Below, piece after piece: positions 14,326 to 53,706 of a stretch of DNA of 64,000 nucleotides. Source of the DNA: an uncultured Exiguobacterium sp. Lineage in GTDB: Bacteria > Pseudomonadota > Alphaproteobacteria > Rhodobacterales > Rhodobacteraceae. The stretch spans positions 54,081-118,080 of the forward strand of contig CAZNPW010000001.1 in the NCBI GenBank assembly GCA_964575185.1, read 5' to 3'. Position 1 is the first letter of the stretch. Each line of letters begins with the position of its first letter. Both the position numbers and the translations under genes were made by a program. Below the pieces are notes generated by a model that had not been told where the DNA came from, ran no database searches, and saw only the letters and a list, made by a program, of their open reading frames with translations.

Positions 14326-14360
14326 GTTGCGCGTCCCGGCGCAGGCCGGGACCTCACCGC
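14326..14360. repeat. REP family A: hairpin GTCCCGGC-N4-GCCGGGAC
   Basis: GCGTCCCGGCGCAGGCCGGGACCTC, lying between the convergent TetR and nnr stops. Confidence 0.65.
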
Positions 14361-16078
14361 ATGAGTTTGGCAAGGAGGCGGGGCAACTGCTCCGGCAGAT
14401 CCTCCGCGATCAGCCCCGGCCCGAACTGCAGCGCACACTCCACATGCAGCCAGGCCGCGGTGCAGGCGGCGTCGAAGGGGGCGAAGCCGCGGGCGAGGAG
14501 ACCGGCGATGAAGCCCGCGAGCACGTCGCCCGACCCGGCGGTCGCGAGCCAGGGGGCTGACCTTTCGTAGACGGCGGCGTTGATCGCGCAGCGGCCCGAG
14601 GGGTCGGCGATGACGGTGTCGGGGCCTTTGCAGAGCACCACGCAGCCCGCGCGCTTCGCGGCCTCGCGGGTGGCATCGACCTTGGAATAGGCGGGGCCGG
14701 TGGTGGCGGGCGCGTCGAGTTTCGCCGCGATGTCGGGGAAGAGGCGGGCGAACTCGCCGGCATGGGGGGTGAGGATGCAGGCGGGGTGAAGCGCGGCGAA
14801 GAGGGTTTCGTCGCGCGCGAGGTGCGTGAGGGCGTCGGCGTCGAGGACGGTGGGGCGCTGCGAAGACCCTCTCCCCCCTCCCCTCTCCCCAGGGAGAGGG
14901 GAGGCGCCTTCGCCCGGCGCGGCGGCTTTGGCGGAGGGCAGCGGTTCCGCCGTCGCCCCCCTCTCGCGTGGGAGAGGGGACGGGGGAGAGGCGAGAGGGG
15001 ACGGGGGAGAAGGCGTGGCAAGACCCAGCGCCGCCGCCACCAGCCCCGCCGCCCGCGCGTCGGCCCCGAGGCCCGGGCCGAGGCAGAGGGCGTTGATGCG
15101 GGTGTCCTCCAGAAGCGCGGTCAGGTCCGCCGCCGCCGCCACCCGCCACAGCATGATCGCGGTGAGGTGGGCGGCGCATTCCGGCAGGGCGTCGTCCGGC
15201 GCGCCGACCGTCACCAGCCCCGCCCCGATCCTGAGCGCCCCCCGCGCGGCGAGGCGGGCGGCGCCGGTGCGGGTGGCGGGGCCGGAGAGGATGAGGGCGT
15301 GGCCGTGGGTGTATTTGTGGGACGACGCGGCCTTGGCGATGCGGGCGGGGGGCGCGACCAACGACAGGCCGGGCGCCCGCCTTGGAATGAAGCGCGGGCC
15401 GGGCGGCGGCGGTTTTGGAAGGATTGCGTCCAGCCCGATGTCGACCGTCACGACCTTGCGACAAAGCCGGGAACCGTCGCCCAGCAGGTGTCCGGGCTTT
15501 TGCCGATGAAACGTAACGGTCAACGCCGCAGGCATGACCGGACCGAGGGGCCGGCCCGAATCCGCACAAAGGCCTGACGGCACGTCGATCGCCACGCCCT
15601 TGTCGATGAACCAGTGCCAGTTGTCGTCCATCTCGCCCAGGACGGCTCCGATTTCGCCGACAAGGGGACGCGACAGGCCGGTGCCGAAGAGCGCATCGAA
15701 CCACAGTGCGAAGGGCGGAGAGGGCAGACTTCTTGCGGTCAGACGCCGCAAGCGACCTCCGGCGTCGCGCCAGGCCACCATCGCGGTCGTCGCATCCGGC
15801 GGCAATCGGCTCGGGTCGCCGTAGAGGAACACCTCCACCTCCCACCCCCGCGCCTGCAACAGCCGCGCCACGACGAACCCGTCGCCGCCGTTGTTGCCCG
15901 GGCCGCAGAGGACCACCGCCCGCTGCGGCGCGAGCGCGAGGTCGGGCCATTCCTCCAGCACCGCCGCGACGACCCCGGCCCCGGCGCGTTCCATCAGCTC
16001 CAGCCCCGTGACCTGCCCGGAGGCGATCGCGGCGGCCTCGATGGCGCGCATCTGGGCGGCGGTGAGGAGTTCGGTCAT
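14354..16078 (-). CDS. nnr: Bifunctional NAD(P)H-hydrate repair enzyme (epimerase/dehydratase), carrying a repeat-derived insertion
   Basis: N-terminal YjeF_N domain (GPGNNGGDG) and C-terminal carbohydrate-kinase domain (GPGLG...VLDADAL...GSGDVLAG). The start MTELLTAAQMR is at 16078. Confidence 0.85.
   Translation of the reverse strand: MTELLTAAQMRAIEAAAIASGQVTGLELMERAGAGVVAAVLEEWPDLALAPQRAVVLCGPGNNGGDGFVVARLLQARGWEVEVFLYGDPSRLPPDATTAMVAWRDAGGRLRRLTARSLPSPPFALWFDALFGTGLSRPLVGEIGAVLGEMDDNWHWFIDKGVAIDVPSGLCADSGRPLGPVMPAALTVTFHRQKPGHLLGDGSRLCRKVVTVDIGLDAILPKPPPPGPRFIPRRAPGLSLVAPPARIAKAASSHKYTHGHALILSGPATRTGAARLAARGALRIGAGLVTVGAPDDALPECAAHLTAIMLWRVAAAADLTALLEDTRINALCLGPGLGADARAAGLVAAALGLATPSPPSPLASPPSPLPRERGATAEPLPSAKAAAPGEGASPLPGERGGGRGSSQRPTVLDADALTHLARDETLFAALHPACILTPHAGEFARLFPDIAAKLDAPATTGPAYSKVDATREAAKRAGCVVLCKGPDTVIADPSGRCAINAAVYERSAPWLATAGSGDVLAGFIAGLLARGFAPFDAACTAAWLHVECALQFGPGLIAEDLPEQLPRLLAKLMR
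14866..15012. repeat. REP family D: composite palindromic element (CCCCTCTCCC / GGGAGAGGGG hairpins) inside nnr
   Basis: Two hairpins. The element is translated in frame as ...PSPPSPLASPPSPLPRERG...SPLPGERGGGRG. A related copy lies at 62461..62520. Confidence 0.7.
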
Positions 16079-16201
16079 GCCTTCGCACCCTGCCCGGAAA
16101 ACGGGCGGCTTGCTTGCCAAACAGGCGTCACGATCCGAAACGCGGCGCGACCGGCCGCCGCACCCCGGGGCCGGATTGTGGCCGCGGAACCGCCGTGGTG
16201 A

Positions 16202-16573
<372 letters not shown>

Positions 16574-34553: not shown

Positions 34554-34585
34554 CGCGGCGGATTGCGGCAAAATCCTGACCGAAC

Positions 34586-34613
34586 CTTGAAGATCGTGGA
34601 ACCGGTCCCACAT
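34586..34613 (+). promoter_or_regulatory. RpoH (sigma-32)-like promoter candidate
   Basis: CTTGAA-N15-CCCACAT, compared with the consensus CTTGAA-N13-17-CCCCAT. It lies about 155 nt upstream of the CDS at 34768. Confidence 0.3.
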
Positions 34614-34767
34614 CTTGCGGGTTGACAGGCCGGACGAGCCCCAGATCAGGTGGCACTTCGTCACAGCCATGCGACGGATGCATGGCAGGCATGAAAAAAC
34701 TGTTGACCCGAATCGGGGTAAACCGGCTAGGAAACAGGCAAATCGAAAAAGACAAGAGACCGACGTG

Positions 34768-38086: not shown

Positions 38087-39904
38087 ATGGACATCCGCAA
38101 CATCGCCATCATCGCGCACGTCGACCATGGCAAGACGACGCTGGTCGACGAGCTCTTGAAGCAGTCGGGCGTCTACCGCGAGGGGCAGGCCGTGACCGAA
38201 CGCGCGATGGACAGCAACGACATCGAGCGCGAGCGGGGGATCACCATCCTGGCGAAGGCCACATCGGTGGAGTGGAAGGGCGTGCGGATCAACATCGTCG
38301 ACACCCCCGGCCACGCCGATTTCGGCGGCGAGGTGGAGCGGATCCTGAACATGGTCGACGGCGTCTGCCTGCTGGTCGATGCCGCCGAGGGGCCGATGCC
38401 GCAGACCAAGTTCGTGACCTCGAAGGCGCTGGCGCTGGGGCTGCGGCCGATCGTGGTGCTGAACAAGGTCGACAAGCCCGACGCCGAACCCGACCGGGCG
38501 CTGAACGAGGTGTTCGACCTGTTCGCCAACCTCGGGGCCGACGACGGCCAGCTCGACTTCCCGCATCTCTATGCGAGCGGCCGGGCGGGCTGGGCGGATG
38601 CCGAGCTCGACGGGCCGCGCCGCGACCTTGCGGCGCTGTTCGACCTGATCGTCGCGCACGTGCCCCCGCCCGCGCAGCAGGCGCGCGGCGGTGAGCCGTT
38701 CCGCATGCTGGCGACGACGCTCGCCTACGACCCCTACCTCGGGCGCATCCTGACGGGGCGGGTGGAGTCGGGGCGGCTGTCCGCCGGGGCGACGGTCAAG
38801 GCGCTGAGCCGCGACGGCGAGCGGATCGAGCAGTTCCGGGTGTCGAAGATCCTCGCCTTCCGCGGGCTGACGCAGACGGCGATCCCGGACGCGGAGCCCG
38901 GCGACATCGTGACGCTCGCGGGCATGGCCAGGGCGACCGTCGCCGACACGATCTGCGCGCCGGAGGTCGAGACCGCCCTGCCCGCCCAGCCCATCGACCC
39001 GCCGACGATCACGGTCACATTCGGGATCAACGATTCGCCGCTGGCGGGGCGCGACGGCGCGAAGGTCCAGTCGCGCGTGATCCGCGAGCGGCTGCTGCGC
39101 GAGAGCGAGAGCAACGTCGCGATCCGGGTGGCCGACACGCCCGGGGGGGAGGCCTTCGAGGTCTCGGGCCGGGGCGAGCTCCAGATGGGGGTGCTGATCG
39201 AGAACATGCGCCGCGAGGGGTTCGAGCTGTCGATCAGCCGCCCGCGCGTCATCCTGAAGGACGACGACGGGCAGCGGATGGAGCCCATCGAGGAGGTCAT
39301 CGTCGATGTCGACGACGAGTTCACCGGCGCGGTGATCGACAAGCTGACGGGCGAGCGGAAGGGCGACCTGGTCGAGATGAAGCCCGCGGGCACCGGCAAG
39401 ACGCGGATCATCGCGCATGTGCCGAGCCGCGGGCTGATCGGCTATCACGGGCAGTTCCTGACCGACACCCGCGGCACGGGCGTCCTGAACCGCATCTTCC
39501 ACGGCTGGGCCCCGCACAAGGGCCCGATCCTGGGCCGCCGGCAGGGCGTGCTGATCAGCATGGAGAACGGGGTGTCGGTGGCCTATGCGCTGTGGAACCT
39601 GGAAGAGCGCGGCAAGATGTTCATCGGCGCGCAGGAGGCCGTCTACGAGGGCATGATCATCGGCGAGCACGCGCGGGACAACGACCTCGAGGTCAACCCG
39701 CTGAAGGGCAAGAAGCTGACCAACGTGCGGGCCAGCGGCAACGACGAGGCGGTGCGGCTGACCACGCCGGTGCGGATGAGCCTGGAGGAGGCCATCGCCT
39801 ATATCGACGACGACGAGCTGGTCGAGGTGACGCCCAAGGCGATCCGGCTGCGCAAGCGCTTCCTCGACCCGAACGAGAGGAAGCGGATGTCGCGGGGGGA
39901 ATGA
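38087..39904 (+). CDS. typA: Translational GTPase TypA/BipA
   Basis: G1-G4 motifs are present ([18 protein letters not shown]). Confidence 0.95.
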
Positions 39905-39917
39905 GGGCCGCAGGAAA

Positions 39918-40010
39918 CCCCGCGTCCCGGCGCAGGCCGGGACCTCGCCCGTTCCACGGATGCCACGCTTGGCGGCACGGGTGAGGTCCCGGCCTCCGCC
40001 GGGACGCGTG
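39918..40010. repeat. REP family A: inverted pair of GTCCCGGC-N4-GCCGGGAC hairpins
   Basis: The hairpin at 39924..39943 has flanks CGC/CTC and the hairpin at 39986..40005 has flanks GAG/GCG, so the two copies face each other. Confidence 0.65.
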
Positions 40011-40013
40011 GCG

Positions 40014-40307
40014 TCAGGGGGTGACCTCCTCCACCACCACGAGGTCCCTGACGGCCGCGCCCCTGGCGTGCGCCAGCCCCTCCTGGTAGCGGGGCGAGCG
40101 GTAGCAGTCGACCGCCGCCTGCAGGCTGGGGAAGCGCGCCACCACGTTGCGGGCGCGGTCGCGGCCTTCGAGCTGGATGTAGGCCCCCCCGCGGGCGAGG
40201 AAGATTCCACCATGCGCGGCAATGGCTTCGGTGGCGATCTTCGCGTAACGCCCATAGGCCTCGGGGTCGGTGACCTCGACGTGGGCGATCCAGAGGGCGC
40301 TAGGCAT
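40014..40307 (-). CDS. DUF1330 domain protein
   Basis: 97 aa, MPSALWIAHVEVTDPEAY... Confidence 0.7.
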   Translation of the reverse strand: MPSALWIAHVEVTDPEAYGRYAKIATEAIAAHGGIFLARGGAYIQLEGRDRARNVVARFPSLQAAVDCYRSPRYQEGLAHARGAAVRDLVVVEEVTP

Positions 40308-40316
40308 CTCTGTCCC

Positions 40317-43001
40317 CTAGATTTTCTCAAGAGCATCGAGCGAAGGATTGATTACCTCCGCTTGAACCACGGCTAGCGCCTTCTCAAATCCTACAATCGA
40401 CGGAGCTCCGCCTTGGGCAAAATCTCGACGTCCACCTCCCCCTTTGCCCCCCATTTCTACAACAAGCCGCTTGACTATTGCAGAAGCATCAAGTGACTTC
40501 GCCAGCGCCGGGGTGACGCCGACCGCAACGGCAACGCTTCCATCGGTCTCGCTCGCAAGAATCACAAAGCCCTGCTCAATCGCCTCCAGCGTATTGTACA
40601 TAATGCTCCTCAATGCACTTGCCGAGATACCTTTGAGCCTAGCTGCCGAGTATTTAACGTTAAGCCGCACCTCTTTTGGAACAAGCTGTTCTTTCGCCTC
40701 TTCCTGAGCGAGCTTGCTACGCAATACATCAACCTCGTTCTGCAGGCTGCGGCGTTCGTCGGCGAGTGCGCGGACGCGGTCGACCACATCGCCCGCATGG
40801 GTCTTCAGCATCCCCGCGACCTCGGCCAGCCGCGCATCCTGCTGGCGGAGGTGGGCGAGCGCGGCCTGGCCCGTCAGCGCCTCGATCCGCCGCACCCCGG
40901 CGCTCGAGGCGCTGTCGTGGAGGAGGACGAAGGCCCCGATATCGCCGGTGCGCGCGACATGCGTGCCGCCGCAGAGTTCGAGCGAGTAGGTCGCGGCGTC
41001 GGCCCCCTTGCCGGAGCCAGGGAGGCTGCCCATCGAGACGACCCGCACCTCGTCGCCGTATTTCTCGCCGAAGAGCGCCTGCGCGCCGAGTGCGCGGGCG
41101 TCGTCGGGGGTCATGATGACGGTCGTGACGGGGGTGTTCTGGCGGACATAGGCGTTGACCTCGGCCTCCACCGCCGCGGTCTGGTCAGGCGTCATCGCGG
41201 TGCCGTGGCTGAAGTCGAAGCGCAGCCGGTCGGGCGCATTGAGCGAGCCGCGCTGGGCGACGTGGGGGCCGAGCGCGCGGCGCAGCGCCTCGTGCAGGAG
41301 GTGCGTGGCGGAGTGGTTGGCGCGGATCGCGCCGCGCCGGGCGCGGTCGACGGCGAGCTGCGCGCCCTGCCCGGCGACGATCTCGCCGTCGGTCACTTCG
41401 GCCAGGTGGACGGACAGGCCCTGCATCTTCCTCGTGTCGGTCACCCGCGCCGTGCCGGTGGCCGTGCGGAGCGTGCCGGTGTCGCCCACCTGCCCGCCCG
41501 ACTCGGCGTAGAAGGGCGTCTGGTTCAGCACAATCTGCACCGACTTTCCCGCCGTTGCGCGGTCGGTCGTGGCACCGTCCGCGATCAGGGCGAGGACCTG
41601 GCCCTCGGCGGTCTCGGTGTCGTAGCCGAGGAACTCGGTCGGGCCGTGGCGGTCGGCGAGGTCGAACCAGACGGCGGCGTCGGCGGTCTCGCCCGAGCCG
41701 GCCCAGGCGGCGCGGGCCTTGGCCTTCTGCTGCGCCATGGCGGCGTCGAAGCCCGCGACATCGACGCCGCGGCCCTGCTCGCGCAGCGCGTCCTGGGTGA
41801 GGTCGAGGGGGAAGCCGTAGGTGTCGTAGAGCCTGAAGGCCGCCGCGCCGGGCAGGTCGGTGCCTGCGGGGAGGCTTGCCACTTCGTCGTCGAGAAGCCG
41901 CAGGCCGCGGTCAAGTGTCTGGCGGAAGCGGGTTTCTTCCAGCCGCAGCGTCTCGGCGATCAGGGCCCGGCCGCGGGTGAGCTCGGGGTAGGCCGCGCCC
42001 ATCTCGGCCACGAGCGACGGGACGAGGCGGTGCATCACCGGGTCCTTCGCGCCGAGCATGTGGGCGTGGCGCATGGCGCGGCGCATGATGCGGCGCAGCA
42101 CGTAGCCGCGGCCTTCGTTCGAGGGCATCACCCCGTCGGCGATGAGGAACGAGGTCGAGCGCAGGTGGTCGGCGATGACGCGGTGGTGGATCCTTCCCGG
42201 GCCGTCGGGGTCGCTGGAGGTCGCGTGGGCGCTGGCCTCGATGAGGGCGCGCATCAGGTCGGTGTCGTAGTTGTCGTGGCGACCCTGGAGCAGCGCGCCG
42301 ATGCGTTCGAGCCCCATGCCGGTGTCGATCGACTGCATTTCCAAGGGCTTGAGGGTGCCGTCCGCGAACTGTTCGTTCTGCATGAAGACGTTGTTCCAGA
42401 TCTCGATGAACCGGTCGCCGTCCTCGCCCGGGCTGCCGGGGGGGCCGCCGGGGATGCTTTCGCCGTGGTCGAAGAAGATCTCGGTGCAGGGGCCGCAGGG
42501 GCCGGTCGGCCCCATGCGCCAGAAGTTGTCGTCCGACGCGATGCGGATGATGCGGTGGTCGGGCAGGCCTGCGATGCGCTTCCAGTAGCCTGCGGCCTCG
42601 TCGTCGGTGTAATAGACGGTGACGGTCAGGCGGTCGGCGGGGATGGCGAAGTCCTTCGTGAGGAGTTCCCAGGAAAAGGCGATGGCCTGTTCCTTGAAAT
42701 AGTCGCCGAAGCTGAAATTGCCCAGCATTTCGAAGAAGGTATGGTGCCGCGCGGTGTAGCCCACGTTGTCGAGGTCGTTGTGCTTGCCGCCCGCGCGGAC
42801 GCATTTCTGCGCGGTGGTGGCGCGGACGTAGTCGCGGGTCTCGACCCCGGTGAAGCAGTTCTTGAACTGCACCATGCCGGAGTTGGTGAACATCAGCGTC
42901 GGGTCGTTGCGGGGGACCAGCGGGCTCGAGTCGACCACGCGGTGGCCGTTGCGCTGGAAATAGGCGAGGAAGGTGGAGCGGATGTCGTTGAGGGAGGGCA
43001 T
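40317..43001 (-). CDS. alaS: Alanine--tRNA ligase, with a compositionally foreign 3' module
   Basis: 894 aa. The N-terminus is [20 protein letters not shown]. The editing-domain HxxxH and CxxxH motifs and the C-terminal GGKGGGR motif are present. Confidence 0.95.
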
Positions 43002-43077
43002 GGGCCGCCTTGGAACGGAAGGGTCGCGGCTGACATACGCCGCGGTCCGGGACCTGTCCACAGGGGGTGTTCCGGCC

Positions 43078-43121
43078 CGTCTTCCGCGCGTCTTCCGGGC
43101 GTCTTCCGGGCGTCTTCCGCC
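43078..43121. repeat. Tandem repeat, 4 x 11 bp (CGTCTTCCGSN)
   Basis: Unit starts at 43078, 43089, 43100 and 43111. The array lies in the recA-alaS spacer, 77-120 nt upstream of the alaS ATG. Confidence 0.8.
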
Positions 43122-43334
43122 GGGCGTGGCGCGCGCCCCGCGGCACCGTCGCGGCGATGCCCCGCAGAGACGGCCTTTTCCTGTCGTGTCAGGGGGTTGC
43201 AGCGCGAAGAGGAGATCGCGGCGGGTCCGGCCGACCGGCAACGGGCCTGCGCGCGCAGCGGTGCCGGATCGGGCAACGGCACGGGCCGCAGGTCCGCCCC
43301 CGCGAGGGGGGCGGGCGCCTGCGCCGGCCGGCCC

Positions 43335-44405
<1,071 letters not shown>

Positions 44406-44460
44406 GGTCCCTTGCCCCTTTGTCTGTCACAGCCGCCCGGTCGCGGCAACCGGCGCGGAT

Positions 44461-44475
44461 GTTCCTGTTTCGTTG
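44461..44475. promoter_or_regulatory. LexA box candidate, GTTC-N7-GTTG
   Basis: One mismatch to the alphaproteobacterial direct repeat GTTC-N7-GTTC. It lies 56-70 nt upstream of recA. Confidence 0.5.
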
Positions 44476-44487
44476 TCGCAGGGATGC

Positions 44488-44502
44488 GATCAAAACGGGA
44501 AC
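44488..44502. promoter_or_regulatory. LexA box candidate, GTTC-N7-GATC on the minus strand
   Basis: The plus strand reads GATCAAAACGGGAAC. This is the variant reported for the Rhodobacter sphaeroides recA promoter. Confidence 0.55.
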
Positions 44503-44585
44503 AATTCAAGTCAAATCCGCAACCGCACCCTCTTTCGCGGAAAATCCTTAAGGGATAGTTAGCCGCGACCCGCCCGCGAGGACCC

Positions 44586-45194
44586 ATGCTGATCTTTACC
44601 GAAGCCCGTCTCGTCATCCTGCCCGTGCCGAAGACGGGGTCGACGGCGCTGCTGAACGCGCTGGCGCCCTTCGCCTCGCTGGTGATCCGCCGGCCGCCGC
44701 AGCTGCGGCACGTCACGGTGCAGCGCTATCACCTCCATGTCCGGCCCTGGCTCGAGGATGCCGGGCTGACCGGCATGCGCGTCGTGGCCGTGATGCGCGA
44801 GCCCGAAAGCTGGCTGGCGAGCTGGTTCCGCTATCGCCAGCGCGACAACGTGAAGGACACGCCGCGGTCGACGGTGGGCGTCAGCTTCGACGATTTCGTG
44901 CGCGGCTGGTGCCGGCCGAAACGCCCGGCCTGCGCCGATGTCGGATCGCAGGAGCGGTTCCTGCGCCCGAACCAGCGCGGCGAGTGGATCGACCGGCTGT
45001 TCCGCTATGAGGAGCTCGGGGTGTTCATCGACTATCTCGAGGCGGAGACCGGGCGCGAGATCACCCTGCCCGAGCGCAACGTGTCCCCCGACGCGCCGCT
45101 GGAGATCGCGCCGGAGACGCGCGCGCTGCTGCGCCGGGTCGCGGCGGACGACTACCATCTTTACGAGAAGCTGACGCCGCCGCGCACGCTTTAG
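44586..45194 (+). CDS. Sulfotransferase-like P-loop protein
   Basis: PKTGSTAL motif near the N-terminus. 202 aa. Confidence 0.5.
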   Translation: MLIFTEARLVILPVPKTGSTALLNALAPFASLVIRRPPQLRHVTVQRYHLHVRPWLEDAGLTGMRVVAVMREPESWLASWFRYRQRDNVKDTPRSTVGVSFDDFVRGWCRPKRPACADVGSQERFLRPNQRGEWIDRLFRYEELGVFIDYLEAETGREITLPERNVSPDAPLEIAPETRALLRRVAADDYHLYEKLTPPRTL

Positions 45195-45931
45195 GGGCGT
45201 CCGCGCAGCGCGGCGAGGAGGAGGCGGCCGCGGCGTCCGGCCTCGGACAGGTGCAGCGTGCCCTGGGCGACGCGGCCGGGGGCGCGCGCGGCGAGGCGGA
45301 GGAGGGGTGCGGCCTGCCAGGCGGCGAGGAGCGCGGGGCGTCCGGGGCCGGTCGGCGGCCGGGGGAGCGCCGCGCGGCTGTCGGCCGCGAGGGCGGCGAT
45401 GGCCGCGGGGCGGTCGTCGACGAGCGGGATGCGGCCGCGCGCCGCGAGCGCCGGGACGGCCTGGAGATAGCTCGCGAGGCCCGCGGCGCGGCCCCAGGCG
45501 CGGAAGGCGGATTCGCCGGTCGTTTGGCCGAGCGCGCGGGCAGCGAGCCACATCAGGCCCCCGGCGGTCGCGTCGAGGTAGTCGGCGAGCGCCGCCGCGT
45601 CGGCATGGGGGGCGCGGCCGAGGTCCCACCAGCGGGCGGCGATCAGGGCGTCCATGGTGTCGACCGGCAGGCCGCGGGCGTGGATCAGATCGTGCAGCGG
45701 CCCCGCGACCTCGTGCGCGCGGCGGGGGCCGGTCAGCGTGTCGCGCCAGAACTGGAGCCGCATCTCGCCGATCAGCGGCTCGGCCGAGGCCCAGGGGGCG
45801 CGGGCGACCTCGAGGTTCCAGGCGTAGAGGACGAGGAGGGGCGCGCGGGCGGCGAGGGGCGCGGCCATGGTGGCGGCGAAGCGGTCGGGGTCGCCCCTGG
45901 CGACGATGGCGGCGCAGGCGTCGACGGTCAC
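45191..45931 (-). CDS. Phytoene/squalene synthase family protein
   Basis: The GTG start overlaps the cimA stop (GTGA). An all-helical isoprenoid-synthase-like sequence. Confidence 0.6.
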   Translation of the reverse strand: MTVDACAAIVARGDPDRFAATMAAPLAARAPLLVLYAWNLEVARAPWASAEPLIGEMRLQFWRDTLTGPRRAHEVAGPLHDLIHARGLPVDTMDALIAARWWDLGRAPHADAAALADYLDATAGGLMWLAARALGQTTGESAFRAWGRAAGLASYLQAVPALAARGRIPLVDDRPAAIAALAADSRAALPRPPTGPGRPALLAAWQAAPLLRLAARAPGRVAQGTLHLSEAGRRGRLLLAALRGRP

Positions 45932-47562
45932 CGGGCCCCGTCCGTGCCGCCGGATCCGACGCCCACGTCGCGGATCAGCTTCCAGCGGATCGCGTCGAGC
46001 AGCGCCTCGAAGCTCGCGTCGACGATGTTGGCGCTGACGCCGACGGTCTGCCAGCGGCGGCCCCGGGCGTCCTCGGAGTCGATGATGACGCGGGTCACGG
46101 CCTCGACCCCGCCGCCCGTGATGCGGACCTTGAAGTCGACGAGGCGCATGTCGTCGATCGCCGCCTGGAAGGGGCCGAGGTCCTTGGCCAGCGCCTTCCA
46201 CAGCGCGTTGACGGGGCCGTGGTCGGTGCCCTCTTCGTCCATGCTTTCGGAGACCGAGAGCATCTTGGCGGGTCCGATCTTGACCACCACCACCGCCTCG
46301 GACAGCGAGACCATGCGGTTGTACTTGTTCTTCCGGCGTTCGACCGTGACGCGGTAGCGTTTCACCTCGAAGAAGTCGGGGGCTGCGCCGAGGGCGCGGC
46401 GGGCGAGGAGCTCGAAGGAGGCTTGGGCCGAGTCGTAGGCGTAGCCCTGGTCCTCGCGGGCCTTGATGTCCTGCAGGATGGCGGTGAGGCGGGGGTCGTC
46501 CGCGGCGACGGCGAGGCCCATGGCGGCGAGGCGGGCGCGGAGGTTGGAGAGGCCCGCCTGGTTCGACATCGGGATGACGCGGGCGTTGCCGACCGATTCG
46601 GGCGCGACATGTTCGTAGGTCGCGGGGTCCTTCAGGATCGCCGAGGCGTGCAGGCCCGCCTTGTGCGCGAAGGCCGAGGCGCCGACGAAGGGCGCCTGGC
46701 GGGCGGGGACGCGGTTCAGGATGTCGTCGAGCGCGCGGGAGGTCTTCAGAAGCTGCTCGAGCGCCTGCGGGGTGACGTTCGTGGACAGGTGGGCGTAGGC
46801 GGGTTTCAGGACCAGCGTGGGGATCAGCGTCGTGAGGTTCGCGTTGCCGCAGCGCTCGCCCAGGCCGTTGAGCGTGCCCTGCACCTGGCGCGCGCCGGCG
46901 TCGACGGCGGCGAGGCTGTTGGCCACCGCGTTGCCGGTGTCGTCGTGGGCGTGGATGCCCAGGGCGTCGCCGGGGATGCCGGAGGCGATGACGGCTTCGG
47001 TGATGCGGGCGACCTCGGCGGGCAGCGTGCCGCCGTTGGTGTCGCAGAGCACGACCCAGCGCGCGCCGGCCTCGCGGGCGGCGTGGAGGCAGGCCGCCGC
47101 GTAGCCGGGGTCGGCCTTCCAGCCGTCGAACAGGTGCTCGGCGTCGAACAGGGTCTCGCGGCCCTTGCCGACGCAGTGGGCGATGCTGGAGCGGATGGTG
47201 TCGAGGTTCTCGTCGCGGGTGATGTTCAGGGCGGTCGCGACGTGGAAGGGGTGGGTCTTGCCGACGAGGCAGACGGCGGGGGTGCCCGCGTCCAGCACGG
47301 CGGCGAGCACGTCGTCGTTCTGCGCGCTGCGCCCGGCGCGCCTGGTCATGCCGAAGGCGGTCATCGTGGCGCGGGTCTGCGGCGCGGCGGCGAAGAAGGC
47401 CGAGTCCGTCGGGTTCGCGCCGGGCCAGCCGCCCTCGATGTAGTCGACGCCGAGCGCGTCGAGCATCAGGGCGATCCGGCGCTTCTCGGCGTCGGAGAAC
47501 TGGACGCCCTGGGTCTGCTGGCCGTCGCGGAGGGTGGTGTCGAAGAGGGAGAGGGGGGTCAT
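45928..47562 (-). CDS. cimA: Citramalate synthase
   Basis: HMGL-like N-terminal domain (LFDTTLRDGQQ) plus a LeuA-type dimerisation domain. 544 aa. Confidence 0.85.
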   Translation of the reverse strand: MTPLSLFDTTLRDGQQTQGVQFSDAEKRRIALMLDALGVDYIEGGWPGANPTDSAFFAAAPQTRATMTAFGMTRRAGRSAQNDDVLAAVLDAGTPAVCLVGKTHPFHVATALNITRDENLDTIRSSIAHCVGKGRETLFDAEHLFDGWKADPGYAAACLHAAREAGARWVVLCDTNGGTLPAEVARITEAVIASGIPGDALGIHAHDDTGNAVANSLAAVDAGARQVQGTLNGLGERCGNANLTTLIPTLVLKPAYAHLSTNVTPQALEQLLKTSRALDDILNRVPARQAPFVGASAFAHKAGLHASAILKDPATYEHVAPESVGNARVIPMSNQAGLSNLRARLAAMGLAVAADDPRLTAILQDIKAREDQGYAYDSAQASFELLARRALGAAPDFFEVKRYRVTVERRKNKYNRMVSLSEAVVVVKIGPAKMLSVSESMDEEGTDHGPVNALWKALAKDLGPFQAAIDDMRLVDFKVRITGGGVEAVTRVIIDSEDARGRRWQTVGVSANIVDASFEALLDAIRWKLIRDVGVGSGGTDGAR

Positions 47563-47590
47563 GGGGCCATCCTATCCGGACGGGCGCAAG

Positions 47591-47635
47591 CCGGTTCCTT
47601 CGAAGGAACCGGACCGGAACCTTCGAAGGTTCCGG
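47591..47635. repeat. REP family B: two 22-bp perfect palindromes
   Basis: CCGGTTCCTTCGAAGGAACCGG, then A, then CCGGAACCTTCGAAGGTTCCGG, lying between cysS and cimA. Confidence 0.7.
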
Positions 47636-47647
47636 TGTCGGCGCGGG

Positions 47648-49102
47648 TCACAGGAGGGCCTCAAGCTTTATCGGGTCGAATAGACTTGTGGGCTCCAGAT
47701 CGACTGTGCCGTCCTTCGCCATTCGCACTTCAACTCCAGCGCCAGCGAGGCGCTCTTTCATCAAGTCAATCGCTGCGAAGTCTCGTGTTTGTCGCGCCAT
47801 GGCATAGGCCACCGACATTCGGATGTGAAATGGATCGAGCAGCTCCCGATGTCCGGCGCGGTTCGTTCGCCGTCGCAGGAGGAGGTCGAATAGTCCCACG
47901 GCATCCAATGCGGAGGCTAGCTCGGTCGCTTTTGCATGAAGTGTGGCCGGGTCATTCGGACCAACTTCTCCACGCGCAATCTTCTCGAGCAATGATGCCT
48001 CACCGTGCAACGCTTGCAGGGCCCTGTAAGTGTCCAAGTCCTCGGAGAGCGAGTCACGGACGCCCTGCGGCAAGAAAGCTGCTCGTCCTGGCGGTGAAAC
48101 CCCGAGATCCGCGATGATCTTCATCGCAGGCAAAAGCGCATCAAGCCGGTTTTCCGCCTCCCGCGCCTTCGCCTCGGTCCAGTCCATCGGGCTGCGGTAG
48201 TGGGTCATCAGCATCACATACCGGATCACCTCGCCCGGCACGCCGCGGTCCAGCAGATCGCGGACGGTGAAGAAGTTGCCGAGGGATTTCGACATCTTCT
48301 TGCCCTCGACCAGCAGCATCTCGTTGTGGACCCAGATTCCGGCGAAGGGTTCGCCCGGGTGGGCGCAGCGGCTTTGCGCGATCTCGTTCTCGTGGTGGGG
48401 GAACTGGAGGTCGATGCCGCCGCCGTGGATCTGGAAGGCGCCGCCGAGCAGGTCGCGGGCCATCGCGCTGCATTCGATGTGCCAGCCGGGGCGGCCGCGG
48501 CCCCAGGGGCTGTCCCAGCCGGGCAGGTCGGGGGTGGAGGGTTTCCAGAGGACGAAGTCGAGCGGGTCCTCCTTGTAGGGCGCGACCTCGACCCGCGCGC
48601 CCGCGATCATGTCGTCGAGGCTGCGCCCCGAGAGCGCGCCGTATTCGGCGTAGCGGCGGACGCGGAAGAGGACGTGGCCCTGGGCCGCGTAGGCGAAGCC
48701 GTCGGCCTGAAGCCGGGCGATCATCGCGATCATCTGCGCGACGTAGTCGGTCGCCCGCGGCATGTGGTCGGGGGGCAGCGCGCCGAGCGCGGCCATGTCG
48801 GCGAGATACCAGCCGATCGTCTCGTCGGTGATGTCGCGGATCGGGCGGCCGGTCGCGGTGGCGCGCGCGTTGATCTTGTCGTCGATGTCGGTGAAGTTGC
48901 GGACGTAGGTGACGGCCCCGGCCCCGTGGACGTGGCGCAGGAGCCGGTAGAGCACGTCGAACACCACCACCGGCCGCGCGTTGCCGAGATGCGCGCGGTC
49001 GTAGACGGTGGGGCCGCAGACATACATGCCGATGCGGCCCTGCGCGTCGGGGAGGACCGGCTGTTTCGTCCTGGTCGGCGTGTTCCACAGCCTGATCGTC
49101 AT
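47648..49102 (-). CDS. cysS: Cysteine--tRNA ligase, with a compositionally atypical 3' module
   Basis: A HIGH-type motif (HLGN) and KMSKS are present. 484 aa. Confidence 0.9.
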
Positions 49103-49296
49103 GGGCGGCCTATGTCGCAGGGGTGTCCCGCGCGGGTCCGGCTTCGGCGAAAGACAGGCGGCCCGCGACGGATCGTCAGCAGGGAATGCGGGAGGGGCGG
49201 ATGCGGCACGGTGCCATGGGCGGGGTGATACGGCACCGGCGCGCGGGTGCCAAGCGCCAATTGCATCCCCCCTGCCGCGCGCGCTATGCCCGGCCC

Positions 49297-49713
49297 ATGA
49301 CGACCGACATCATCGCGCGCTGCGAGGCGAAGGGCCTGCGCATGACCGACCAGCGCCGCGTGGTCGCGCGCGTCATCGGCGCGGCGGGGGATCACCCGGA
49401 CGTCGAGGCGCTGCACGCCCGCGCGGTGCGGGTGGACCCGCGCATCTCGCTCGCCACCGTCTACCGCACGGTGAAGCTGTTCGAGGAGGCGGGGATCCTC
49501 GACCGGCTGGAGTTCGGCGACGGGCGGGCGCGCTACGAGGACGCCGAGCGCGACCACCACGACCACCTGATCGACGTGGCGACGGGCGAGGTGATCGAGT
49601 TCGTCGACCCCGACATCGAGGCGCTGCAGGAGCGGATCGCGGCGCGGCTGGGCTACCGGCTGATCGGGCACCGACTGGAGCTGCTGGCGGTCAAGGCGAA
49701 GGGCGGGGCGTGA
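49297..49713 (+). CDS. irr: Fur family regulator, Irr-like
   Basis: 138 aa. It has a winged-helix region ([17 protein letters not shown]) and a DHHDHL His-rich motif, and it lacks C-terminal CxxC pairs. Confidence 0.65.
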
Positions 49714-50558
49714 GCCGCCAGGAGGACCTGCGGGGCATCGCGCTGATGACCGCGGCGATGGCGGGATTTGCCGCCTCGGATGCGGGCCTGAAGGCGGTGT
49801 CGGGGGCGCTGCCGGTAGGGCAGATGCTGCTCGCCTATGGCGCGGGCGGGGCGCTGTGCCTGCTGCTGGTGGCGCGGGCGCGGCGGGTGGCGGTCTGGAC
49901 GCGCGAGGCCTGGCTGCCGCCGGTGGTGCTGCGCAACGCGGCCGAGATGGTGGCGACGGTCTGCATCCTGAGCGCGCTGGCGCGGATTCCGCTCTCGACC
50001 GCGACGGCGGTGCTGCAGGCGACCCCGGTGGTCTACCTGGCGCTGGCCGGGCCGGTGCTGGGGCTGCGGGTCACCGCGCGGCAGCGGGCGGCGGTGGCCT
50101 GCGGGTTGCTCGGCGTGCTGCTGATCGTGCGGCCGGGGCTTGCGGGGTTCGACGCGGGGGCCCTGTGGGCGGTGGGCGGGGTGGCGGCGCTGGCGCTGCG
50201 GGACCTGGCCACGCGGAAGGTGCCGGGGCGGGTGCCGACGCTGGCCTTGGCGGTCTGGGGGTTCGCGGCGCTGGTGCCGGTGGGGCTGGTCTGGACGGCG
50301 TGGGCGGGCAGCGTGGTGCCGGGGGTGCGCGAGCAGGCGCTGCTGGCGGTGGCGGTGCTGTGCGGGGTCGCGGCCTACCTCGCCGTCACCGCCGCGCTGC
50401 GGACGGGCGATCCGGGGGCGGTGACGCCCTTCCGCTACACGCGGATGGTGTTCGGGATGGGCCTGGGGCTGGCGGTCTTCGGCGAGGCGCCCGACGCGCC
50501 GACGCTGGCGGGCGCGGCGCTGGTCGTGCTGGCGGGCCTGTCGGTGCTGCGGCGATGA
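49710..50558 (+). CDS. DMT/EamA family transporter
   Basis: The GTG start overlaps the irr stop. About 10 hydrophobic helices. An alternative ATG lies at 49746. Confidence 0.7.
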   Translation: MSRQEDLRGIALMTAAMAGFAASDAGLKAVSGALPVGQMLLAYGAGGALCLLLVARARRVAVWTREAWLPPVVLRNAAEMVATVCILSALARIPLSTATAVLQATPVVYLALAGPVLGLRVTARQRAAVACGLLGVLLIVRPGLAGFDAGALWAVGGVAALALRDLATRKVPGRVPTLALAVWGFAALVPVGLVWTAWAGSVVPGVREQALLAVAVLCGVAAYLAVTAALRTGDPGAVTPFRYTRMVFGMGLGLAVFGEAPDAPTLAGAALVVLAGLSVLRR

Positions 50559-51433: not shown

Positions 51434-52735
<1,302 letters not shown>

Positions 52736-52770
52736 GGCGCGGGTCCGGGGACCGCTCCGGGCCATTGGGG

Positions 52771-53160
52771 TGCCCGCGTCCCGGCGGAGGTTGGGACCTC
52801 TGCTTCGCCGCTGTGAGCGCGGAGGCCCCGGCCTGCGCCGGGGCGCGGGGTTTTTTGGGAGGGGCCGCAAGTATGTCCGCGTCCCGGCGGAGGGACCTCT
52901 GCTTCGCCGCTGTGCGCGCGGAGGCCCCGGCCTGCGCCGGGGCGCGGGGTTTTTTCGAGGGGCCGCAGGAATGCCCGCGTCCCGGCGGAGGCCGGGACCT
53001 CTGCCCGGCCGCTGTCAGCGCGGAGGCCCCGGCCTGCGGCGGGGCGCGGGGTTTTTTTGGGGGAGGGGCCGCAGGAATGCCCGCGTCGCGGCGGAGGCCG
53101 GGACCTCTGCTTCGCCGCTGTCAGCGCAGAGGCCCCGGCCTGCGCCGGGGCGCGGGGTTC
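52771..53160. repeat. Tandem array of 4 composite REP family A units (about 98-106 bp each)
   Basis: Unit starts at 52771, 52874, 52972 and 53078. Each unit has hairpin GTCCCGGC-GGAG-GCCGGGAC and hairpin CCCCGGC-CTGC-GCCGGGG. Units 1-3 end in GGGGTTTTTT. Confidence 0.8.
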
Positions 53161-53209
53161 TGCGGCCCGGACCGGCGGGGAGGCCGGGCGCCGGAACGCC
53201 TGACGCGGA

Positions 53210-53593
53210 TCAGTCGCCCGACCGCACCCAGTCGCCATCCTCGGCCGACAGCGAGCGTTCGGCGGCGCGTTCGAGCCGCGCCCGGACGGCGTGCAGCGCG
53301 GTGTCGTCGCCGTCGTCGAGGCAGCCGCGCAGGTCGCCCGCGACGGCGGCGAAGGTCACCATGCCGAGATGGGTCGCCATCCGCTCCACCCGCCGGAGCT
53401 GGCGCGGCAGGTCGTCCCACAGCCCGTCGCGGAGCTGCGCCGCGACCGCGGCGGTGGCCGCGGCGAGCTCGGCGAGTGCCTTGCCGACGACCGCGTCGGC
53501 CGCCTGCGTTCCCAGGTTGCGATAGATCGCCGCGATCGGCCCGGCGTCCTGCCGCAGCCTGTCGCGCGGCTGCAGCCGCACCACGTTGTCCAT
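53210..53593 (-). CDS. Hypothetical protein
   Basis: 127 aa from ATG 53593, all-helical and Ala/Arg-rich. I recognise no motif. Confidence 0.4.
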   Translation of the reverse strand: MDNVVRLQPRDRLRQDAGPIAAIYRNLGTQAADAVVGKALAELAAATAAVAAQLRDGLWDDLPRQLRRVERMATHLGMVTFAAVAGDLRGCLDDGDDTALHAVRARLERAAERSLSAEDGDWVRSGD

Positions 53594-53706
53594 ATCCGTC
53601 ACCTCACACACCCGGGGCAAGCCTTGCGCGAAGTGCTGAAGAAAGCGTTGCGCCGCGCCGGGCCCGGCTTGGCAAAACCCGTCGAATTGTGCCAAACCCG
53701 CGGGCG

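Follow-up and report, generated by a model that had tools for sequence, protein, structure and literature searches.

The window analysed here is a 64-kb stretch of DNA in which cysS lies complete on the minus strand (47648..49102); its open reading frame, Pfam matches and structure alignment identify the product as a cysteine--tRNA ligase (CysRS) of 484 aa. Its neighbours are typA, a DUF1330 gene, alaS, recA, SQS_PSY, a LeuA/CimA-like gene, fur, EamA, eno and lpx genes, and integrase or other mobile-element genes are absent among the annotated neighbours over 15 kb. No tRNA genes were found in the 64-kb window. The Pfam family tRNA-synt_1e (PF01406) covers residues 20-316 of the cysS product (E=1.4e-111), and the translation carries both a HIGH-type motif, HLGN, and KMSKS, as belongs to the catalytic Rossmann fold of CysRS (class Ia). 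Neither of the Pfam C-terminal models DALR_2 and CysS_C was detected at E<0.01, and HMMER aligned residues 3-466 with the solved CysRS structures 8qhp and 1li5. The AlphaFold model of the protein has a mean pLDDT of 92.2 (84-98 in the C-part), and it was matched by Foldseek to the E. coli CysRS-tRNA complex 1u0b_B over 484 columns with TM 0.83/0.87. In this model the 3' part of the gene is predicted to encode a well-folded helical bundle together with an alpha/beta anticodon-binding domain, the canonical C-terminal fold of CysRS, and judged in this way it appears still to code for a canonical, functional tRNA-binding region.

The first-pass annotation had reported a codon-usage discontinuity in the last ~500 nt of cysS, and had suggested a GC3 scan as a check. 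It can be seen from such a scan that the step is sharp and not gradual: sliding GC3 is 0.90-1.00 over codons 1 to ~310 and 0.50-0.73 from ~320 to the end, with GC1 and GC2 unchanged along the gene. Maximum likelihood places the change at codon 316, where the tRNA-synt_1e domain ends and GC3 falls in a single step from 0.96 to 0.61 (2xLLR = 91.9), a score that was reached in 0/300 permutations. The hand counts on which the annotation had relied also proved exact, with 33, 34 and 34 G+C in the lines at 47761, 47881 and 47941, and 41 and 44 in those at 48781 and 48901. The gene can accordingly be divided into a 5' part of native composition, which encodes the catalytic Rossmann/CP/SC-fold (codons 1-316; 48155..49102, minus strand), and an AT-shifted 3' block, a putative recombination import (codons 317-480; ~47663..48154, minus strand). 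The first A/T-ending codon of the block is E317 (gaa, 48154-48152). Of the 168 codons from the change point to the end, 45 are of types rare in the window, vs 1 of the 316 ahead of it, and the mean log synonymous-codon probability of the block under native usage is -2.02, compared with -0.655 +/- 0.116 (minimum -1.34) for native 160-codon windows, which places its codon-usage log-likelihood ~12 SD off native. With GC1 at 0.71 and GC3 at ~0.62, the block resembles those of mid-GC relatives. When the change-point scan was applied to all 56 called genes of the window, only alaS (2xLLR 142.8) scored above cysS, and the next gene reached 21.6. All window genes other than these two have GC3 of 0.87-0.99 whatever their function, and therefore low constraint alone does not lower GC3 here.

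The first-pass annotation had also held that the block runs exactly to the stop codon. A/T-ending codons do continue as far as L480 (ctt, 47665-47663), but the four codons that precede the stop, gag gcc ctc ctg (EALL), all end in G or C, and the block stops four codons short. These codons and the stop (47648..47662, minus strand) form the probable right-hand junction zone, which lies inside the conserved C-terminal tail motif (CysRS consensus FDPAKLEAL). The discontinuity is thus internal and sharp, with native sequence on both sides, since GC3 is native again at or just past the stop. Downstream lies a spacer of 85 nt (47563..47647) with two perfect 18-nt palindromes (47593-47610 and 47616-47633), which belong to a REP-like repeat that has another copy at 43-60; three copies were found vs 0.01 expected by chance. 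The right flank of the variable block is formed by a gene of native composition (45928..47562, minus strand; GC3 0.97) for a LeuA/CimA-family (HMGL-like) synthase of 544 aa, with Pfam matches to HMGL-like, HCS_D2 and LeuA_dimer. This gene also follows cysS in 24 relatives, those with AT-shifted blocks included, at a distance of 0-500 nt, and across 23 loci the GC3 of the LeuA/CimA-like gene equals that of the cysS N-part. No second or displaced cysS 3' fragment was found in the 64 kb, either by tblastn with 120 C-parts or by blastn of the block, and blastn detected no repeat of the block >25 nt in the window. Likewise, no Rfam family was matched at E <= 0.1 over 39500-49800, a search for promoter-like sites in 47400-49300 was empty, and a terminator scan of the block and spacer gave nothing either. 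In the window itself, then, we observe a compositional step in a gene whose predicted fold is intact.

The second gene with a strong step, alaS, carries an AT-shifted 3' block over codons 757-894, in the C-Ala/DHHA1 region (40317..40733, minus strand), with GC3 falling from 0.94 to 0.51 at codon 756. The median identity of this block to 119 AlaRS proteins is 35.6%, vs 61.5% typical at the same N-part distance, and it is a real outlier at the protein level. A block of the same type with the same GC3 step is found in locus L083. The alaS block is low in GC3 in two lineages whose AlaRS are only 78% identical, which hints that a lasting force, and not a recent import, is at work. A metagenome scan returned relatives of the alaS block at 31-44% identity only, and no donor was found. 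One long import spanning the ends of both synthetase genes can be discarded, as recA, SQS_PSY, the LeuA/CimA-like gene and the N-parts between them are at GC3 0.92-0.97. We found no evidence for one common event behind the cysS and alaS blocks.

The cysS genes of relatives were informative about how such blocks arise. Between Paracoccus jeotgali CP025583 (L001) and L002 the flanks are 97-100% identical, and identity falls to ~50% over a stretch of ~470 nt that begins at codon 305 and ends 13 nt short of the stop; it returns within an 'ALT*' tail equivalent to the EALL zone, and the 4-nt overlap between the stop and the start of the next gene has survived the replacement. Two further pairs of near-identical genomes hold unrelated blocks, with differences at codons 321-440 (L001 and L084) or confined to codons 313-415 (L085 and L086). 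The reciprocal case is provided by L100 and L101, in which the N-part and cimA are 75-92% identical and codons 307-486 are 97-100% identical, so that lineages ~15% diverged hold one block in common. In the replaced blocks of relatives dS is 1.15 to saturated vs 0.05-0.14 in the flanks, and dN/dS is ~0.2; we take these values as a sign of import and not of selection in situ. Positive selection acting on the block in situ is rejected, since dS is inflated as much as dN. The suggestion of the first-pass annotation that partial allelic replacement by recombination or HGT had occurred is borne out by these relatives, where the region is replaced in near-identical strains and shared by diverged lineages.

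The same decoupling was seen across the family. For CysRS pairs with N-parts 94-99% identical, the C-parts are <50% identical in 18/30, and in 35/120 CysRS proteins the N-part and the C-part point to different nearest relatives. AlaRS, which was used as a control, has no N/C decoupling of the CysRS kind. Several of the mosaic pairs derive from metagenome assemblies. In 25 pairs, the left block boundary falls at residues 310-324 in 17 and at 368-411 in the others; the right boundaries span 390-484 overall and lie at 427-444 or 473-484. Some replaced blocks are internal to cysS and do not reach the stop. Taken together, the sequence comparisons among relatives show replacement, sharing, variable boundaries and conserved synteny. 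The N/C identity ratio of the window CysRS does not stand out in the family, where it ranks 32nd of 120 by residual, and because the CysRS family is scrambled between N- and C-parts throughout, an incongruence test on the window cysS alone is uninformative.

We noted that the shift in composition is not a peculiarity of one genome, as had been assumed in the first-pass annotation; most Rhodobacterales orthologs and one Sphingomonas MAG have the GC3 step. GC3 of the C-part is below that of the N-part in 22/29 Rhodobacterales cysS genes and above it in 1 (Wilcoxon p = 1e-5), and it lies >=0.05 under cimA GC3 in 17/23 loci (p = 9e-5). The step is present in genomes of isolates, namely Paracoccus subflavus GY0581, Aliiroseovarius sediminis N1F302, Sulfitobacter brevis DSM 11443 and Paramylibacter ulvae KCTC 32465. 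The GC3 deficit is larger in more divergent blocks (rho -0.51) and in longer ones (rho 0.60). C-blocks are AT-shifted in low-GC hosts too, some of them at GC3 0.15-0.45, under any host gene set seen here, and donor composition alone is therefore insufficient to explain the shift. Within one species-level background, allele GC3 is 0.83 in L001, 0.62 in L084 and 0.65 in L002. The C-parts of L001, L013, L017 and L023 are at host GC3, indicating that a long-resident block can equilibrate.

The N-part of the window CysRS is 72-80% identical to other Rhodobacterales CysRS, and its closest N-part relative on record is <=80% identical. When 1.84 billion representatives were searched by HMMER with the C-part, 77 weak matches were returned, mostly short fragments, the best at 46% identity, and no donor of the block was identified. 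C-part peptides gave no match in metagenome contigs, and no segment related to the block was present in the phage collection. In the plasmid collection only the Paracoccus chromids' own cysS matched, and viral contigs held host-like cysS only; one of these, L087, has portal and protease genes 5' of a cysS with no GC3 step and is uninformative. No sister strain of the window cysS was found in public data. Import into the window genome is therefore something that we infer rather than observe.

We consider it probable that homologous recombination brought a divergent allele of this hypervariable region into the 3' third of the window cysS, in a genome otherwise very rich in G+C; for Rhodobacterales as a whole, the sequence data are most likely explained if the tRNA-binding end of cysS is hypervariable and is swapped repeatedly by recombination. 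The window genome would have acquired its block in this way relatively recently. Incoming DNA from another Rhodobacterales lineage would pair with the recipient in the conserved sequence that flanks the variable region, on the left in the coding stretch ...THYRxPMDWT... at the end of the catalytic domain, and on the right in the conserved tail region of cysS and/or where the LeuA/CimA-like gene begins; the unalignable middle would enter as one block. Mismatch repair would then fix point mismatches in the heteroduplex flanks and not the large heterology, leaving only the block foreign, and this may be the cause of the sharp edges. The codons of the block would mirror an AT-shifted allele pool (GC3 ~0.4-0.7) and not the host GC3 of 0.95.

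A potential explanation for the composition that would not need to invoke recent import is vertical residence under a region-specific regime, in which alleles too divergent for heteroduplex formation escape GC-biased gene conversion and/or efficient codon selection and drift to an AT-biased mutational equilibrium, with the recombining flanks staying GC-rich. The C-part departs from the N-part almost always downwards (22 lower and 1 higher, n=29), low-GC hosts included, the deficit tracks block divergence and length, and block GC3 of 0.15-0.45 lies under any plausible donor genome average in the set; the AT-shifted alaS block in two distant lineages, and a published association of recombination with raised bacterial GC3 (PMC4450053), point in the same direction. 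However, the four C-parts that are wholly at host GC3 do not agree with such a regime, the three alleles found in one species-level background are related by replacement and not by decay, and a change in situ from 0.95 to 0.61 needs a very long stay, yet turnover is fast, with the block replaced in 18/30 close pairs. We therefore regard residence as a rather unlikely account of the window block, although the regime may account for the AT-shifted allele pool without conflict with import here. More doubtful still is the idea that in CysRS, an essential enzyme of the cytoplasm, the C-terminal region is a focus of diversifying selection. In Rhodobacterales and at least one Sphingomonas it would then be maintained as a horizontally shared pool of very old alleles because an antagonist recognises it; this could be a protein from a phage or a gene-transfer agent, or an inter-bacterial toxin docking on CysRS or its tRNA complex. 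The AT shift would mark a segment that lacks internal recombination and is thereby spared GC-biased gene conversion. [quoted passage not shown] Selection of this kind could explain why the step position is conserved in many lineages. We nevertheless consider it very unlikely: the Rfam and promoter searches were empty, the blocks are unalignable between close strains and hence hold no conserved nucleotide element, and the shift is entirely missing in several lineages.

The first-pass annotation had also raised a remnant of an integrative element that targets gene 3' ends, that is, an element which brought a replacement end for cysS and was later deleted. The precedent is prophage e14, which supplies the icd 3' end in E. 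coli and leaves a 163-bp pseudo-icd' duplicate (PMC6379469); as in e14/phage 21 and icd, the foreign-looking end of a housekeeping gene reaches the stop in cysS and the gene is predicted to stay functional, and REP-like palindromes lie just 3' of the stop. Against this, e14 has a site-specific integrase acting at a fixed att site, a prophage after the gene and the icd' duplicate, whereas at cysS there are no adjacent integrase or element genes in the 15 kb of annotated neighbours, no displaced copy in the 64 kb at the protein or DNA level, and no fixed crossover site, boundaries being variable and some replaced blocks internal. Synteny with the LeuA/CimA-like gene is conserved in the 24 relatives, the Paracoccus pair keeps its stop/start overlap across the replacement, no phage record has a related segment, and a block of ~490 nt with <50% amino-acid identity is unlike an att-site duplication; an element scar is thus extremely improbable. 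We attach as little weight to an assembly chimera, in which reads of a co-occurring lower-GC relative were joined across conserved stretches of cysS and alaS. The window's CysRS is a singleton from one 120-kb contig and both blocks start beside conserved coding sequence, but the right-hand junctions lie at a stop codon or spacer that is not conserved between species and so offers no shared k-mers, two independent double switches would be required, and the four isolate genomes show the same GC3 step.

The proposed import by homologous recombination into cysS has parallels in known systems. In Neisseria and Streptococcus, mosaic penicillin-binding-protein (PBP) genes are made by interspecies homologous recombination, and like cysS they have a divergent block in a conserved syntenic gene, with sharp edges in conserved sequence, raised synonymous divergence and no mobile-element genes. 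Unlike them, cysS encodes an essential aminoacyl-tRNA synthetase with the block at its tRNA-binding end and no known selective agent such as an antibiotic, and its allele pool is very diverse order-wide and systematically AT-shifted. The central domain of flagellin is a hypervariable region kept as divergent alleles in a conserved gene, and shares with cysS conserved ends in which recombination occurs, an unalignable middle and often a lower G+C than the genome. However, flagellin-type proteins are surface-exposed targets of phage and immunity, whereas CysRS is cytoplasmic, and its block, at dN/dS ~0.2, gives no sign of positive selection. Variation is likewise concentrated at the 3' end of the target gene of a diversity-generating retroelement, but such an element depends on a template repeat close by, with ~90% identity to the variable region, and makes adenine-specific changes, whereas cysS has no second copy of the block in the window and its alleles are unalignable. 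One study proposes bacterial GluRS2 as a chimera of catalytic and anticodon-binding parts (PMC3927822). As portrayed there, GluRS2 resembles cysS in that these two parts of a class I synthetase have different histories; GluRS2-type chimeras would be ancient fixed events that define paralog families, whereas the cysS exchange appears to be ongoing among near-identical strains.

We found no earlier description of the cysS pattern in the literature. Rhodobacterales cysS is a mosaic, and its last third should not be joined to the rest when marker-gene trees or ANI-like comparisons are made; compositional detectors of HGT would flag the gene in most Rhodobacterales genomes. The tRNA-binding region of an essential synthetase is exchanged freely among lineages at <35% identity, which suggests that the catalytic and anticodon-binding parts of CysRS are loosely coupled to an unusual degree. 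With an unalignable block, AT-shifted in most lineages, between recombining flanks of genome-typical composition, the locus is a compact natural test case for the debate on GC content, and it could help to part the contributions of biased gene conversion, selection and donor composition to bacterial GC3.

The first-pass annotation had pointed to a codon-usage discontinuity at the 3′ end of cysS (47648..49102, minus strand, 484 aa), preceded by almost uniformly G/C-ending codons, and both observations hold. In sliding 30-codon windows GC3 runs at 0.90-1.00 up to about codon 310, and beyond about codon 320 it stays at 0.50-0.73 until the gene ends, with GC1 (~0.7) and GC2 (~0.45) flat across the same windows. 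A two-segment likelihood test places one abrupt change at codon 316 (GC3 0.96 to 0.61, 2xLLR 91.9), a value matched by none of 300 permutations. When this test was run on all 56 genes of the window, called by GC3 frame analysis, cysS ranked second after alaS and the third gene reached 21.6; in a frame plot of the whole window, 47521-48240 was the longest coding stretch without any frame at GC3 ≥ 0.85. With the other 54 genes as the reference for native synonymous codon usage, the block scored -2.02 per codon, against -0.655 ± 0.116 (minimum -1.34) for native 160-codon windows, and codons making up <3% of their synonymous family in native genes occupied 45 of 168 positions in the block vs 1 of 316 upstream. 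The G+C hand counts made by line were reproduced exactly. The shift begins with the A/T-ending codon E317 (48154-48152) and such codons extend as far as L480 (47665-47663); it had been described as running exactly to the stop, but the last four codons, and the downstream gene, are in native style.

The Pfam catalytic domain of the cysteine-tRNA synthetase (CysRS) stops at residue 316, exactly where GC3 steps. The window protein aligns with solved CysRS structures across residues 3-466, and its AlphaFold model (70 homologs) has a mean pLDDT of 92.2, with 84-98 in the C-part, which is modelled as a helical bundle, a long helix and a small alpha/beta unit. This fold was recovered where the annotation had placed the helical, anticodon-binding region. 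Overlaid on E. coli CysRS in complex with tRNA-Cys (1u0b_B), the model as a whole gives TM 0.83/0.87 over 484 columns. A decayed or unrelated tail is ruled out by the structure alignment, the pLDDT and this superposition. Because it aligns, models and superposes as a canonical CysRS C-part, the block is a bona fide, and presumably functional, helical-bundle and anticodon-binding region.

Homologs of the window CysRS belong to the Rhodobacterales (Paracoccaceae). Overall, the nearest reaches just 67% identity, with 80% for the N-part and 43% for the C-part when the two are taken apart at residue 318. No public match to the block exceeded 46% identity in protein databases or a metagenome scan. 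The N-part to C-part ratio is ordinary for the family, where N-parts 76-80% identical pair with C-parts of ~36%. Even among pairs with N-parts 94-99% identical, the C-parts were <50% identical in 18 of 30, and the nearest relative by C-part differed from that by N-part for 35 of 120 CysRS. In the AlaRS control (n=120) the two parts co-varied smoothly, N-parts of 94-97% going with C-parts of 91%. Our key finding is that the N-part and C-part of CysRS are decoupled. We also noted that cysS of several Paracoccus species lies on 1.4-2.2-Mb replicons listed as plasmids in PLSDB (chromids; NZ_CP038206.1, CP038202.1, NZ_CP141053.1, NZ_CP035287.1, NZ_CP038196.1).

Block replacement can be seen in the DNA of relatives. 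Paracoccus jeotgali (L001, CP025583) and L002, a metagenome contig, show 97-100% identity upstream, over codons 1-304 and once more from a point 13 nt short of the stop onwards into the following gene; between these flanks identity is ~50% across ~470 nt, and the replacement leaves intact the 4-nt overlap of the cysS stop with the start of the LeuA/CimA-like gene. Loci L085 and L086, with flanks ~98% identical, differ only at an internal block (codons 313-415), and L001 differs from locus L084 over codons 321-440. For such pairs dS (Nei-Gojobori) is 1.15 to saturated in the blocks and 0.05-0.14 in the flanks, and dN/dS is ~0.2 in the blocks vs ~0.01 in the catalytic part. These values lead us to reject local positive selection as the origin of the blocks; they are old alleles that were imported, and purifying selection on them is relaxed. 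The converse is found in two JGI metagenome contigs, L100 (1081-1620) and L101, which are 75-92% identical in the mid-catalytic part and the next gene but 97-100% identical over the C-terminal block (codons 307-486), so that one block is shared across diverged backgrounds; since codons 1 to ~95 and the region upstream of them are near-identical too, their cysS is a multi-patch mosaic. Across 25 near-identical CysRS protein pairs the left boundary fell at residues 310-324 in 17, and the right boundary at 427-444 in 12 and 473-484 in nine. Homologous recombination predicts boundaries of this kind, variable yet clustered at conserved-motif edges, whereas a site-specific recombinase would give a fixed site.

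The compositional shift is also order-wide. C-part GC3 lay below that of the N-part by >0.05 in 22 of 29 Rhodobacterales cysS and above it in one (mean difference 0.147, Wilcoxon p = 1e-5), and the step recurs at codons 300-320 across many lineages, isolate genomes included. At 23 loci N-part GC3 (0.773) matched that of the downstream synthase gene (0.784), the C-part averaged 0.625, and the C-part was at least 0.05 under the synthase gene in 17. Outside the Rhodobacterales, cysS mostly showed no such difference. The deficit is greater in more divergent (rho -0.51, p = 0.003) and in longer blocks (rho 0.60, p = 0.0003), and is largest, among 32 genes compared, in the window cysS. Blocks at four loci (L001, L013, L017 and L023) are at host GC3, and therefore a block can equilibrate. 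Two further loci were observed. In a Sphingomonas sp. MAG (L041 6900-7413, QFPK01000020.1) GC3 steps from 0.85 to 0.2-0.45 at about codon 300, the block having a total G+C of 0.35-0.45 and the C-part no relative above 36% identity in the set compared. An IMG/VR contig (L087 88-2349, 3300048838_001131) carries a Rhodobacterales-like cysS without a GC3 step; genes for a phage prohead protease and portal lie ~2 kb upstream of this cysS, and the gene downstream of it is not the usual LeuA/CimA-like synthase.

The 3′ discontinuity reported for alaS (40317-43001, minus strand) is likewise genuine, and compositionally stronger: GC3 falls from 0.94 to 0.51 at codon 756 (2xLLR 142.8, the highest of the 56 genes), so that two synthetase genes with strong steps lie within 9 kb. 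Its block (40317-40733, the last 138 codons, C-Ala/DHHA1 region) is, unlike that of cysS, a clear protein-level outlier among 120 Rhodobacterales AlaRS, with a median identity of 35.6% vs the 61.5% typical for its N-part distance. This block type recurs, at 65% identity, in one other organism (L083, GCA_038921795.1, 64% G+C, AlaRS 78% identical), where the GC3 step is repeated at the same codon. The two blocks of the window are separate patches, because 7 kb of native-composition genes lie between them. They are alike in third-position composition, C3 being halved or more and G3 unchanged. No donor was found for either in metagenome scans, nor for cysS among 1.84 billion representatives.

The genes around cysS are core genes (typA/bipA, DUF1330, alaS, recA, a hypothetical gene, SQS_PSY, a LeuA/CimA-family synthase, fur, two EamA transporters, eno, carbonic anhydrase, lpxB, lpxI and lpxA), with no mobile-element genes among the annotated neighbours. 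Searches found no tRNA gene across the window, no second cysS 3′ fragment in it at protein or DNA level and, in and around the block, neither an Rfam match nor a promoter-like site. The 85-nt cysS-cimA spacer that follows the stop contains two tandem copies of a small repeat, an 18-nt perfect palindrome (47593-47610 and 47616-47633); with a copy at 43-60 they form a REP-like intergenic family, in the form GGAACCTTCGAAGGTTCC and the arm-swapped GGTTCCTTCGAAGGAACC, of three copies in the window vs ~0.01 expected by chance. Elsewhere, ~500 nt at 52741-53280 (0.78 G+C), between eno (51461-52735) and a 136-aa ORF without a Pfam match (53210-53620), have GC3 dominant in no reading frame. A 574-aa ORF (14354-16078, minus strand) has slightly low GC3 (0.87, third-lowest of the 56 genes), and the frame signal is weaker over ~15300-16380. 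Short non-coding stretches of low G+C (0.52-0.60; window 71.6%) at 1981-2430, 34561-34760 and 44406-44585 presumably serve as promoters or regulatory sequence; the last separates recA from a divergent hypothetical gene.

Of the two explanations put forward by the annotation, partial allelic replacement stands in its general form of horizontal transfer and recombination, but a remnant of a 3′-end-targeting element is not supported: there are no mobile-element genes among the annotated neighbours and no displaced cysS fragment in the window, and boundaries vary. An e14/icd-type scar (compare PMC6379469) fails on all three of its hallmarks, element genes adjacent to the gene end, a displaced gene-end duplicate (looked for across the window) and a fixed crossover site. 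For an assembly chimera two double switches would be required, their junctions lying in non-conserved spacer, and it cannot account for the same step in isolate genomes. A codon-level function of the AT-rich block is unlikely because the blocks have no nucleotide sequence in common.

The window block is best explained as a divergent allele of this hypervariable region that, as we infer for this genome, came in by recombination. Its GC1 (0.71) and GC3 (0.62) are within the range of blocks from mid-GC relatives, and it stands out because no other host in the set has so high a GC3. Mismatch repair corrects point mismatches in a heteroduplex but not large heterology; the sharp block edges could thus have arisen by correction of the heteroduplex flanks, the large heterology being left. 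Donor composition alone fails to explain the AT-shifted allele pool, because some blocks have GC3 below that of any host gene set compared and low-GC hosts show the deficit too. An attractive alternative is a regional regime, in which a block unable to recombine internally would be out of reach of GC-biased gene conversion or of efficient selection on codons (compare PMC4450053).

Literature searches found no description of the cysS C-part pattern. We conclude that the cysS feature adds a further case of recombination mosaicism within a hypervariable segment of a gene, and that what is unexpected is its scope: an essential synthetase, a whole order and a systematic AT shift.
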